DNA of 64,000 bases from an uncultured Solirubrobacteraceae bacterium (GTDB lineage Bacteria > Actinomycetota > Thermoleophilia > Solirubrobacterales > Solirubrobacteraceae), in contig CAVUFN010000008.1 in the NCBI GenBank assembly GCA_963740765.1, forward strand, positions 392,092 to 456,091, in the 5' to 3' direction. Positions 44,601 through 49,466 of this stretch are shown here, in pieces. The position numbers and the translations under genes were made by a program. The notes below the pieces were generated by a model. It did not search any database, was not told the DNA's origin, and was given only the letters and a program-made list of their open reading frames with translations. Positions within the stretch are counted from its first letter, which is position 1. Every line of letters starts with the position of its first letter.

Positions 44601-45139
44601 CAGGGGTCCTCGCCCTCCAGGGCGACTTCGAGGCCCACGCGAAGCTCCTGCGTGGCCTCGGCGCCGAGGCGCGCGAGGTCCGCACCCCGGCGGGGCTGGA
44701 CGGGCTCGATGCGCTGGTCATCCCCGGAGGCGAGTCGACCACGATGACGCTGGGGGTCGAGCGCGAGGGCCTGGGCGACCCGCTGCGGGCCTTCGCGGCA
44801 ACCGGCAAGCCGGTGCTGGGCACCTGCGCCGGGATGATCATGCTCGACCGCGAGCACCTCGCGATCGGCGACTGGACGTGCCGCCGCAACGCCTTCGGCC
44901 GCCAGATCCGCTCCTTCGAGGACGACCTGCACGTGGACGGCTTCGGCGACGTCAGCGCCGTGTTCATCCGGGCCCCGTGGGTGGCGGACCGCGGGGAGGA
45001 CGTCGAGATGCTCTGCAGCGTCGACGACCACCCCGTCGTCGTCCGCCAGGGCAATCTGCTCGCGATCGCGTTCCACCCCGAGATCGCCGGGGAGACGCGC
45101 TTCCACGAGTGGCTGCTCAGCGCCGCAGGCGAGCGGTGA
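44594..45139 (+). CDS. pdxT: pyridoxal 5'-phosphate synthase glutaminase subunit
   Basis: [21 protein letters not shown] (catalytic Cys), and FHPE. TTG start overlaps the pdxS stop. Confidence 0.9.
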
Positions 45140-48100: not shown

Positions 48101-49466
48101 TGCCGCCGTGGAACTGCAGCTCGCCGGCGTCGACGCGGGTGGCGCCGTCGTTCTCGAGCGCGAAGTCGATGCGCGAGTTGCTCGCGCCGACCGTGCGCAC
48201 GATCTTGCCGCCGCTGAGGATGTGCAGCCGCGCCGGGGTGGCCTGCTCGCTGTACCAGTGGCCGGTGACGCCGCGGGCGTCGAAGGTGCCGCCCTGCTCC
48301 CACAGCGCGCCCGGGCCGCCCTGCAGGTAGCCCGAGAGCCAGCTGCCGCCGCCCAGGTTGCGCAGCGTCCGGCCGTCATCGAGTTGGACATAGGAGTAGT
48401 TGCCGGGGTCCAGGGTGACGCCGCCGGTGGTCGCGACCTCCGTCACGCCGGAGCCCGACATCGTGCCGCCCGTCCAGCGGAAGTTCCCGTTGACATTCAC
48501 GGTCCCGGCGCCCGTCAGCGCACCGCCGCCGAGCTCGAGGTCGTCGCCCTCGATCGACTTGCCGGCCGGGACCTCCAGCGTGTGGCTGCGGATGATGACA
48601 TCCTCGAAGGTGGTGCCGTCGTCCAGCTGGAGCGGATCGGCGACCCCGCCACTGACGACCCCGATGCGCGCGCCGTTCACTGCGTCGAAGGCGCCGGAGG
48701 AGCCGGTGCCGGTGCTGAACTGCAGCTCGCCGGATTGGGCCTCCACGGTGCCGTCGTTGTCGAGCGCGAAGGCCATGTGGGTGGCGCCGGAGCCTGCCGA
48801 CTTCACCAGGGTGCCGGTGTTGTGCAGCTTGGCGTAGTTGCCGCTGGCGGCGAGGAACATGGACCCCGTCTCACCGCGCAGGTCGAAGGTGCCCGACTGC
48901 TCCCAGACCACGTCCACGCTGCCGGAGACGTAGCCAGCGCGCCAGGCGCCCGTGCCCGTGGTCTCCAGACGCCGGCCGGTCTGCAGGATCAGGTAGCCGT
49001 AGTTGCCCGGATCCATGATCATCGTCCCGGTGGAGCGCGTCGTGCCGCCGTCCTGCATGGCGCCGCCGGCCCAGTCCAGCGTCCCGGTGACGATCGCGGT
49101 GCCGGCGCCGGCCAGGGTGCCCGTCACTCGCATGTCGGTGAAGGTCGACTCCTCGTTGATGCCCGTCGCAGTGACGCTCAGCGAGGAGTTGACGTTCACC
49201 GGCTGCGACGACCGCACGCTCTTGACGGTGACGGAGGTGTCCACGAGCACCGGGTCGGTGGTGCCGAGGACCCCGATGCAGGCGTGGTCGTTGGCGGTCG
49301 GCGTCGCGTTGCCCGTCCAGTTGAGGGCGTTGGACCACAGGCGGTCGCCGCCACCGCCGTCCCATTGGACGGTGCAGGTCGGCGCGGCGGTCGGGGCCGT
49401 CGCGAACACGCCGGCCGCCACGGCGGCGATGGCGAAGAAGAGGACGAGGGTGCGCATTCGGGTCAT
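45117..49466 (-). CDS. secreted 1,449-aa repeat protein (predicted beta-helix/adhesin-like) built of about 200-aa tandem modules; family not recognised
   Basis: ATG 49466 gives the signal peptide MTRMRTLVLFFAIAAVAAGVFATAPTAAP. An N-terminal W..GGG...W....NW.G motif is followed by 5 modules spaced 198-203 aa apart, each with G.L.W.GG.M.G.GTT.V.G.L..DPGNY.Y..L..GRTLR..G.G.W..GY...SRIDFALE.DG....G.L.F.GG. The C-terminal region holds a PA-rich linker and an Arg-rich 70-aa tail. The track ORF's upstream 109 aa are rejected because they are antisense-like and overlap the RHS gene. Confidence 0.8.
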   Translation of the reverse strand: MTRMRTLVLFFAIAAVAAGVFATAPTAAPTCTVQWDGGGGDRLWSNALNWTGNATPTANDHACIGVLGTTDPVLVDTSVTVKSVRSSQPVNVNSSLSVTATGINEESTFTDMRVTGTLAGAGTAIVTGTLDWAGGAMQDGGTTRSTGTMIMDPGNYGYLILQTGRRLETTGTGAWRAGYVSGSVDVVWEQSGTFDLRGETGSMFLAASGNYAKLHNTGTLVKSAGSGATHMAFALDNDGTVEAQSGELQFSTGTGSSGAFDAVNGARIGVVSGGVADPLQLDDGTTFEDVIIRSHTLEVPAGKSIEGDDLELGGGALTGAGTVNVNGNFRWTGGTMSGSGVTEVATTGGVTLDPGNYSYVQLDDGRTLRNLGGGSWLSGYLQGGPGALWEQGGTFDARGVTGHWYSEQATPARLHILSGGKIVRTVGASNSRIDFALENDGATRVDAGELQFHGGSAGAVSSGDFGGTGSGMTSLDGGKFEIGTASFSGVQINGATADVATGATWSGTKLTLAGGTLGGPGDTTASGTLLWKGGTMAGTGTTTVSGALNVDPGNYSYTFLNAGRTLRATGTGTWRSGYLRGQDGAAFAVAGTWEANGETGQFYREGDADSATAPPAFRVEPGGTLIKTGGVSESRIDFALEFDGTVTAQTGTLGFHGGGSGLSTGNLGGNGDDVGASLVAGDFAVGDATFSGGRITGGDVSVAAGAEWSGTNLALNAGSLGGAGDTIATATLRWRGGAMRGTGTTEVSGSLTVDPGNYAYVNLSRGRTLRVNGEATYKTGYIAGARDALLEVAGTLDASSTTGSAYFDDDAQPGARPLVHVLPGGTLTKTTGASASRFDWALEFDGTATAVSGDLEFQGGGGAGTSTGTLGGGATGRAVLGSGDWQLGDAGLAGGRVGGGNVTVAAGKTWSGTSIVLTGGTIGGPGDVTVTNGLDWRGGTMNGAGTTTVSGALDIDPGAYSSASLGRVLRTQGTGVWRTGYIGVDDGVRWENSGTVELNAETGNMYRSQSGPDSPRLVNTGTLKKSAGDGTTSVDLPVDQLGGSVVQESGELRFGAGGTIASSSQGGTYAGGAWALQDGADLTGARFAGGTFRLAAGTPVRFADGAITGGEITGDGDLVLGGDVAWTGGGMRGAGALEQEASGTLELGGYITVERDVYAYGTTRVEGGQIAQPGASRWHNHGTIELAGQSFWSNAYGRNQLLNRGLIVKEPGEWTTSLPNTFNDGTIRVPDGRLSFDRLQQTSDGRLELQLGATEDATGRILTSGYGPARLAGTLDVSLADGYTPAHGDTFSVIEAYGLNGRFATIDGLDYPGPGQLTANWSYSGLDLVASVPTPRPAAPRSPEPAEPDAAVAPDAAVAPEAVVAPESGAADPGNGSAADARTRWTLAVAPGARIKVLSKPRGVRVRLDRRAGVLRVRATRRAARPAVLRYRIVRPNGRTRTVTARLRR
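45370..45423. repeat. 18-bp x3 tandem repeat inside the linker of the 1,449-aa protein
   Basis: GGCGCGACGACTGCTTCC / GGCGCGACGGCCGCGTCC / GGCGCGACGGCCGCGTCC encodes (minus strand) DAAVAP-DAAVAP-EAVVAP. Confidence 0.9.
46020..49140 (-). repeat. five (plus one degenerate) tandem coding modules of about 600 nt
   Basis: DPGNY/DPGAY anchors lie at protein residues 152, 353, 551, 754 and 956. The copies are divergent (protein-level similarity, not identical DNA). Confidence 0.75.

Follow-up and report, generated by a model that had tools for sequence, protein, structure and literature searches.

A beta-solenoid repeat protein encoded directly behind teneurin-like toxins in Solirubrobacterales: a candidate accessory arm

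The animal teneurins descend from bacterial teneurin-like proteins (TLPs). Raoelijaona et al. (Nat Commun 2026; PMC13018210) solved the structure of a Bacillus TLP, found TLP C-terminal domains to be toxic, and described these proteins as surface caged polymorphic toxins with variable N-terminal adhesion domains (immunoglobulin (Ig), S-layer and wall-binding types) and "no obvious delivery machinery"; how TLPs are displayed, aimed and released is explicitly given there as unknown. Directly downstream of almost all TLPs lies a small immunity gene, whose product is small and cytoplasmic, and the set described includes three Solirubrobacter TLPs (PMC13018210). Here we analyze a stretch of 64,000 nucleotides (the window) from an uncultured Solirubrobacteraceae bacterium (assembly GCA_963740765.1, contig CAVUFN010000008.1, positions 392,092 to 456,091), in which the slot right after a TLP gene, where a TLP immunity gene would stand, is occupied by the gene for a secreted repeat protein of 1,449 amino acids (aa) that we call the solenoid protein. 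A secreted solenoid partner of 1,200-1,800 aa encoded in trans is not mentioned in the text or supplementary material of PMC13018210, and the conserved coupling and fusion of such proteins to TLPs appears to be previously undescribed. We put at about even the chance that the solenoid protein is the TLP's accessory display or aiming arm, a ~30-nm surface fiber held by a basic foot.

The solenoid gene (45117..49466, minus strand) is an uninterrupted open reading frame (ORF) of 1,449 codons encoding an intact 1,449-aa protein with a Sec signal peptide at its N-terminus, which bears out the secreted 1,449-aa protein described in an earlier sequence-only reading of this DNA. That reading made no use of what we regard as the strongest functional clue, the conserved coupling to the TLP gene upstream. 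Pfam identifies the NHL propeller, teneurin YD shell, RHS repeats and Rhs-associated core of the window TLP, and its N-terminal part (signal peptide, CARDB, TTR and FN-plug) was recognized by comparison with a paralog; the order is signal peptide, CARDB, TTR, FN-plug, NHL propeller, YD shell, Rhs core and a 126-aa Gly-rich C-terminal domain. The match to the PDB entries 9pt5/9ifo ("Teneurin-like protein") has an E value of 1e-262. The two genes and the parts of the solenoid gene are as follows.

49466..55757, minus strand: upstream partner gene, encoding a bacterial teneurin-like YD/RHS protein (Pfam, NCBIfam, PDB, paralog comparison)
49383..49466, minus strand: start codon and Sec-type signal peptide, aa 1-~28, MTRMRTLVLFFAIAAVAAGVFATAPTAAP; the sole hydrophobic segment, without a lipobox
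49149..49382, minus strand: N-terminal cap, aa 29-106, motif AP.CT..WDG...W....NW....P...DH.C, with C31 and C63 (alignments, cysteine scan)
48555..49148, minus strand: module 1, aa 107-304 (BLASTP, hidden Markov model (HMM))
47958..48548, minus strand: module 2, aa 307-503 (BLASTP, HMM)
47349..47951, minus strand: module 3, aa 506-706 (BLASTP, HMM; AlphaFold model, a continuous beta-solenoid with module 4)
46740..47342, minus strand: module 4, aa 709-909 (BLASTP, HMM, AlphaFold model)
46173..46736, minus strand: module 5, aa 911-1098 (BLASTP, HMM)
45756..46151, minus strand: module 6, degenerate and truncated, aa 1106-1237 (BLASTP, HMM, AlphaFold model)
45471..45755, minus strand: C-terminal end of the solenoid, aa 1238-1332, L.GTLDVSL.DGYTP..GDTF.VI, conserved in relatives (model, Foldseek)
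45327..45470, minus strand: acidic Pro/Ala-rich linker, aa 1333-1380, predicted to be disordered (pLDDT <50, composition)
45120..45326, minus strand: basic tail, aa 1381-1449, predicted six-strand Ig-like beta-sandwich (model, Foldseek, charge)

The two genes meet in the sequence TGATG, in which the solenoid ATG and the TLP TGA have one base (A) in common, and AGGAG lies 12 nt upstream; judging from this arrangement, the solenoid gene is translationally coupled to the TLP gene. The same pairing recurs elsewhere. (In what follows, labels beginning with L, G and P denote loci, genomes and proteins of this analysis, G000 being the window's genome.) A TLP gene stands directly ahead of a close solenoid homolog in nine loci (the window, C15, L014, L016, L017, L018, L021, L105 and L106), with gaps of -4 to +29 nt and unrelated flanking genes, and all of the closest homologs with visible upstream DNA are preceded directly by a TLP of ~1,900-2,170 aa. 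L014 is syntenic with the window and has pdxT downstream, and the C15 locus is a second pair in the window's own genome, where an intact 2,146-aa TLP is joined by a GTGA overlap to a 1,564-aa solenoid paralog. In three pairs of loci (the window and L014, C15 and L017, L016 and L106) the members are each other's best match by YD shell as well as by solenoid protein, and this co-segregation of the two genes implies that the pair is inherited or transferred as a unit. We define a TLP-coupled subfamily by the cap motif AP.C...WDG/NW/DH.C, a basic C-terminal domain and a start -4 to +29 nt from the TLP stop; the solenoid protein has all three.

For the order as a whole we searched an even sample of 401 Solirubrobacterales genomes with an FN-plug profile and found TLPs in 12 of them. 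Five of the 12 (G000, G190, G268, G345 and G349) have a module-protein gene immediately behind a TLP gene, and two more (G028 and G077) have an in-frame fusion in which the TLP N-terminus carries the cap, one or several modules and the solenoid end; the other five have no linked module protein. The third TLP gene of G000 (C8:192915-199379, plus strand; L103 2915-9379) is intact and encodes 2,154 aa with a Gly/Cys-rich C-terminal domain ending in ...KILF. It is followed by an ORF of ~290 aa (starting ...RAVFYGNCQAG...) that has no signal peptide and is not a module protein.

The fusions bear on function. Both L102 (G028:C39:3-6662, minus strand) and G077:C103 are single ORFs of at least 2,220 aa in which the cap (APCSITWDGG...NWD...DHVC) is followed by one module, the solenoid end, CARDB-like regions and a complete TTR/FN-plug/NHL/YD body, and going by this domain order each is a natural fusion of the window's two genes. 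In these genomes, the solenoid is itself the N-terminal adhesion or display domain of the TLP. Outside this pair, modules also stand N-terminal to a YD/RHS region, three to five of them per protein, in seven of the 249 family members retrieved. One of the seven, P0048, was scanned and is a DUF6531-RHS protein, and precomputed Pfam annotation gives DUF6531 and RHS for four others. Such fusions are Rosetta-stone evidence that solenoid and YD cage act together and, since the solenoid takes the position of an N-terminal display arm in them, we read the window protein as a trans-encoded arm, which would do the job of the cis-encoded N-terminal adhesion domains of other TLPs and RHS toxins.

From locus to locus, the TLPs have entirely different C-terminal domains (Gly/Cys-rich ending in ...SFSF, helical, DUF6973 and other types), as expected of polymorphic toxins, whereas the solenoid partner is conserved. 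That of the window TLP (49466-49846, minus strand; 126 aa, Gly-rich, with four Cys and ending in ...KSCRSFSF) is homologous to that of the L014 TLP. We found no small immunity-type ORF after the TLP in any of the nine paired loci, and none between or after the TLP and solenoid genes in the window. Through the conserved coupling and fusion to TLPs, the locus has a polymorphic-toxin organization with a candidate accessory protein.

The solenoid protein is built of tandem modules. The motif DPG.Y occurs at aa 152, 353, 551, 754 and 956 (spacings 201, 198, 203 and 202), and when 200-aa pieces cut around these anchors were compared pairwise by BLASTP, the five modules were 34-57% identical to one another with E values of 3e-25 to 4e-52. 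The sixth copy (aa 1106-1237) matched three of the modules at E 4e-8 to 7e-10 and the other two more weakly, and an HMM profile built from the five modules also picks up this degenerate copy, making six matches in all. Hydrophobic and Gly positions, tested for autocorrelation, show their peak at lags 202-203. These results agree in full with the sequence-only reading, which had described five well-preserved modules and one degenerate module of ~200 aa at a spacing of 198-203 aa; both of its consensus strings are present in the module alignment, and a regex and hydropathy scan likewise bore out its statement that the protein has no LPxTG motif and no lipobox. The scan found no hydrophobic segment beyond the signal peptide, and by these signals the protein is neither a sortase substrate nor a lipoprotein. 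Its only cysteines are C31 and C63, which presumably form a disulfide in the cap.

AlphaFold2 predicts a continuous beta-solenoid for modules 3 and 4 (aa 500-912, modeled from a 39-row alignment) with a pLDDT of 93.4 and a pTM of 0.89, built throughout of 3-5-residue strands joined by 2-6-residue turns. The high pTM of this two-module model implies that the modules form one unbroken solenoid, not a string of beads. Strand, glycine and hydrophobic autocorrelation gave sub-periods of 7, 19 and 37, pointing to ~3 strands per ~19-residue coil and ~10 coils per module; the module is thus a super-repeat of ~10 such coils, which accounts for the earlier remark that it is about ten times longer than the usual autotransporter repeat. 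Beta-solenoids usually rise by 0.48 nm per coil, and a solenoid of ~1,300 residues would form a rod ~30 nm long. In the model, the DPGNY motif falls within a loop of six residues that links two strands, and each module has one such loop. It is lineage-specific, being found in the solenoid protein and its 94% relative and not conserved further out; P0003 has a looser version, (D/N/A)PG(Q/E)Y.

In the model of aa 1100-1449 (pLDDT 82.6), the solenoid extends to about aa 1332 and is followed by disorder at aa ~1351-1381 (pLDDT <50) and a six-strand sandwich. Searched with Foldseek, the solenoid end (last module plus pre-linker region) matched Ssp (8e7f) at E 2.7e-4 with probability 1.0; pertactin and IgA1 protease were further matches. 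The module pair had no match in the PDB at E≤1e-3; its weak matches (template modeling (TM) scores of 0.2-0.3) were to Ag43, EspC, UpaB, Hbp, TibA, two-partner secretion (TPS) domains, ice-binding solenoids and tailspikes, and a viral fold library gave the same picture with no significant match. The suggestion that the protein recalls passenger-type beta-helix proteins thus holds at the level of the fold and for the solenoid end, but not as a significant structural match for the modules themselves. On these models the solenoid protein is a member of the beta-solenoid surface-fiber kind.

Among the known systems closest to it are the passengers of the AIDA-I/Ag43- and pertactin-type autotransporters, which are likewise parallel beta-solenoid rods with ~19-residue coils; in Foldseek, the solenoid end resembles Ssp, pertactin and IgA1 protease, and the modules weakly resemble Ag43, UpaB and TibA. 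Unlike them, the solenoid protein has ~200-aa super-repeats, ends in a linker and a basic Ig-like domain instead of a barrel, and comes from a monoderm host. The Solirubrobacterales are monoderm Actinomycetota, and the host lineage is indicated by PdxS, which is 89-84% identical to homologs in Solirubrobacteraceae/Solirubrobacterales genomes. The protein is therefore not a type V autotransporter: it has the beta-helical passenger, but neither the C-terminal barrel translocator nor an outer-membrane host. The CdiA/FHA filaments of TPS systems offer a similar parallel, in that a long beta-helical stalk is tied to a polymorphic toxin acting on neighbors, and the TPS domains of HMW1 and HpmA are among the weak fold matches (E>1). 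However, we found no TPS secretion domain, no Fil_haemagg repeats and no other Pfam match, and the toxin here is a separate YD-cage protein rather than a tip on the same polypeptide, with plain Sec export in a monoderm. TcA of the ABC (Tc) toxins is likewise a large separate protein encoded with an RHS/YD cage, but it is a pentameric, largely alpha-helical injection device for which our searches gave no sequence or fold similarity to the solenoid protein, and the likeness is one of analogy only.

At the sequence level, the sequence-only reading had not recognized the repeat family, and neither did our searches: the solenoid protein has no match in Pfam-A or NCBIfam at E≤1 and none in a PDB sequence search, a literature search on the ~200-aa module found nothing, and when 39 relatives were scanned singly against Pfam no family matched more than one of them. 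The possibility that PATR units (PF12951) strung together make up the module was rejected on HMM evidence, as the solenoid protein has no PF12951 match and none falls inside module arrays: only one of the 39 family members scanned has any PATR match, and the relatives P0060 and P0091 have theirs outside the arrays. Some relatives hold a PATR unit beside their modules, and the module and PATR may be very distantly related.

The family is nevertheless large. We defined its members by at least two tandem matches to a profile with the core GGTL.G.G.L.V.G.L.W.GG.M.G.G.T ... RTL.N.GT ... F.N.GT..K..G.G.T ... N.GTV....G.L.L.GG, of which the solenoid protein has six. A word-indexed search yielded 198 proteins, and the 120 retrieved hold 2-12 profile matches each. 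When a profile built from the modules of the window protein and its paralog was searched against 1.84 billion cluster representatives (50%-identity clusters), 8,141 matched at E≤1e-3 and 1,303 at E≤1e-30; the proteins have 2-23 copies each (as many as 23 matched stretches), and the longest reach 5,600 aa. Among the named sources are Solirubrobacter, Gaiellaceae, Planctomycetota, Thermoanaerobaculia, Chloroflexota and cyanobacteria. A pattern scan of genome contigs, derived from the module alignment, gave 181 sites, none of which was confirmed. The relatives are labeled "hypothetical" or "beta strand repeat-containing protein", and the NCBI proteins of the latter name (from Planctomycetota, Acidobacteriota, cyanobacteria and others) repeat this ~190-aa module 2-23 times in tandem, but have anchors of their own (PEP-CTERM, SLH, dockerin), other passenger domains and, mostly, no toxin linkage. 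The ~190-200-aa module is a large, common, uncurated family, and with a curated model of it, annotation would extend to a large block of giant surface proteins now called "hypothetical" (thousands of clusters in many phyla).

The tail is the proposed point of attachment to the cell. The body of the solenoid protein has an isoelectric point (pI) of 4.55 and the tail (aa 1381-1449) a pI of 12, with 23 K+R and one D+E. The earlier impression of a beta-looking tail is supported by the predicted six-strand Ig-like sandwich, for which Foldseek returned the Ig domains of Rib, titin and telokin (TM 0.4-0.47 on the target, E>0.1). Homologous tails are found in P0003, P0004, P0005, P0010 and P0011, while the C15 paralog and others carry a second, ~110-aa "CRRCG" type, so the dipole of acidic body and basic tail is kept across two unrelated tail types. 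Six tails had no Pfam match at E≤10, which leaves a cadherin-like/Big_9 identity of the P0010/P0011 tail (DDRY.V..G..L....GLLANDRA...) unsupported; we keep the tail as Ig-like by its predicted fold only. As a repeated sorting signal, the tail is not detectable by BLAST, and tblastn of this genome returns only the tail itself.

Charge gave a broader signal. In a crude GC3-filtered ORF set of G000, 98 ORFs (median length 657 aa) have a net charge of at least +15 in their last 60 aa, and signal-peptide-like starts are found in 50% of them compared with 14% of the remaining ORFs. The composition suggests a lineage-wide electrostatic retention of secreted proteins on the envelope. The conserved dipole and the genome-wide excess of basic tails on secreted proteins strengthen the idea that the tail may anchor the protein to anionic wall polymers. 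Examples of basic-tail ORFs are C17:141850-143776 (plus), C18:167618-170711 (minus), C18:31232-33017 (minus) and C1:157837-160723 (plus), with tails of ~60-90 aa. Many of the basic tails in G000 share a Cys-flanked pattern, C..RR.F.I.L...V.V...GK...VDL.G...V.V...G...R.Y..C, which, from its sequence, may be an undescribed surface-retention domain of Solirubrobacterales; the many basic tails on secreted proteins hint at such retention in the order.

Combining these features, we infer that the tail binds the wall, that the protein physically touches the TLP and that it serves in display or aiming. The solenoid protein would be exported by Sec as a rigid beta-solenoid fiber, made together with the TLP through translational coupling. 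In its mature form it would consist of a disulfide-capped N-terminus, six modules forming one ~30-nm rod, a passenger-like end, a disordered linker and a basic Ig-like domain. This basic foot would hold the acidic rod on the anionic envelope of the monoderm cell, and the rod would bind the TLP and project or aim its toxin cage at neighboring cells. A stronger form of the proposal, in which the solenoid is the missing extracellular machinery of Sec-exported TLPs, complexed with the YD cage, anchored in the wall and presenting or triggering the toxin at ~30 nm, is possible but to our minds rather doubtful; if true, it would make the pair a two-component toxin system distinct from delivery of the type VI secretion (T6SS), Tc and contact-dependent inhibition (CDI) types. 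In either form, a coupled 150-kDa fiber that is fused to the toxin in some relatives is a concrete candidate for the missing TLP part in one bacterial lineage.

Several observations weigh against the display-arm proposal. The window TLP lies in several frames between ~53,000 and 55,100: tblastn with an intact paralog shows at least three frame changes (from -2 to -1 near 54,500, to -2 near 53,220 and to -3 near 53,020), whereas the other 3.6 kb of the gene and the 4.35-kb solenoid gene are clean. It may therefore be a pseudogene, or the assembly may be faulty or mis-polished among three paralogous TLPs; in L015, from a 94%-identical strain, the TLP region is also fragmented and gappy there, and the solenoid gene is well aligned. 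Seven of the 15 TLP genes in the order sample, including the third TLP of G000, have no linked module protein, the fused G028 protein has no basic tail, and the gene order of the pair (toxin, then arm) is opposite to the domain order of the fusions. The tail matches nothing in Pfam, which leaves charge as the basis for its wall-binding role. Finally, many module proteins (G008, P0013 and P0016 among them) have no TLP or RHS gene nearby, which argues that the module is a general building block and not specific to toxins.

This last point also speaks for the best of the rival explanations, that the protein is a stand-alone surface adhesin or sheath-like fiber, co-transcribed with the TLP only because the two are envelope proteins and neither binding nor needing the toxin. 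The module family is huge and mostly without RHS/TLP neighbors, and its anchors are diverse (PEP-CTERM, SLH, dockerin, Calx-beta and Ig domains). On the other hand, start and stop overlap or lie ≤29 nt apart in nine loci with different flanks, the genes co-segregate, and in-frame fusions join the solenoid to TLPs and DUF6531-RHS proteins; such pairing is not expected of unrelated envelope genes, and we therefore consider a stand-alone fiber unlikely, if still a serious competitor.

An active delivery device resembling TcA or the CdiA stalk, which would dock the YD cage (e.g., by its NHL propeller), bind a receptor and trigger toxin release or entry, draws on the same linkage and fusions as the display arm. 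Also in its favor, the solenoid is the only conserved gene beside these TLPs, replacing the usual immunity gene, in a class of toxins whose delivery machinery is stated to be unknown (PMC13018210). We nevertheless judge it improbable, as the protein lacks hydrophobic and amphipathic segments as well as any pore-forming or translocation domain, resembles neither TcA nor TPS domains, and shows no sign of membrane insertion in its sequence; the evidence goes no further than a passive rod.

A beta-helix enzyme (a polysaccharide lyase or depolymerase) or a glycan-binding lectin, with the DPGNY loops as active or binding sites, is very unlikely. Tailspikes, PL6 lyases and pectate-lyase-like proteins do appear among the weak Foldseek matches, and the regular placement of a six-residue DPGNY loop in each module would suit such a role, but all of these matches are non-significant (E>1, TM 0.1-0.3), the loop is not conserved in the family, and tandem super-repeats are typical of fibers rather than enzymes.

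A 463-aa ORF of one Solirubrobacter looks to us like an aldehyde dehydrogenase. It is given as the "immunity example" for that bacterium (PMC13018210). Least probable of all, and hardly credible, is that the solenoid protein is itself the immunity or self-protection factor of the TLP: its position immediately downstream (TGATG) is the arrangement described for almost all TLPs (PMC13018210) and no small ORF lies between or after the two genes, but immunity proteins are small and co-vary with their toxin domain, whereas this secreted 150-kDa rod stays conserved although the toxin domains beside it are unrelated.

Some smaller features of the locus remain to be described. Within the linker, positions 45370-45423 (minus strand) consist of an 18-nt unit, gccggacgcggccgtcgc, in two identical copies and one diverged copy, together encoding (D/E)A(A/V)VAP three times; this tandem repeat is likely a site of length variation. 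In L015 (10001-13673 of an ENA contig from the 94%-identical strain), the solenoid ortholog is called as two proteins of 883 aa and 327 aa. One indel, near window position ~46,800-47,000, sets the two assemblies apart, and the rest aligns gap-free at ~95% nucleotide identity. The pdxS-pdxT pair downstream of the solenoid gene is syntenic with locus L014, and the 3′ ends of the solenoid gene and the convergent pdxT overlap by 23 nt (45117-45139).

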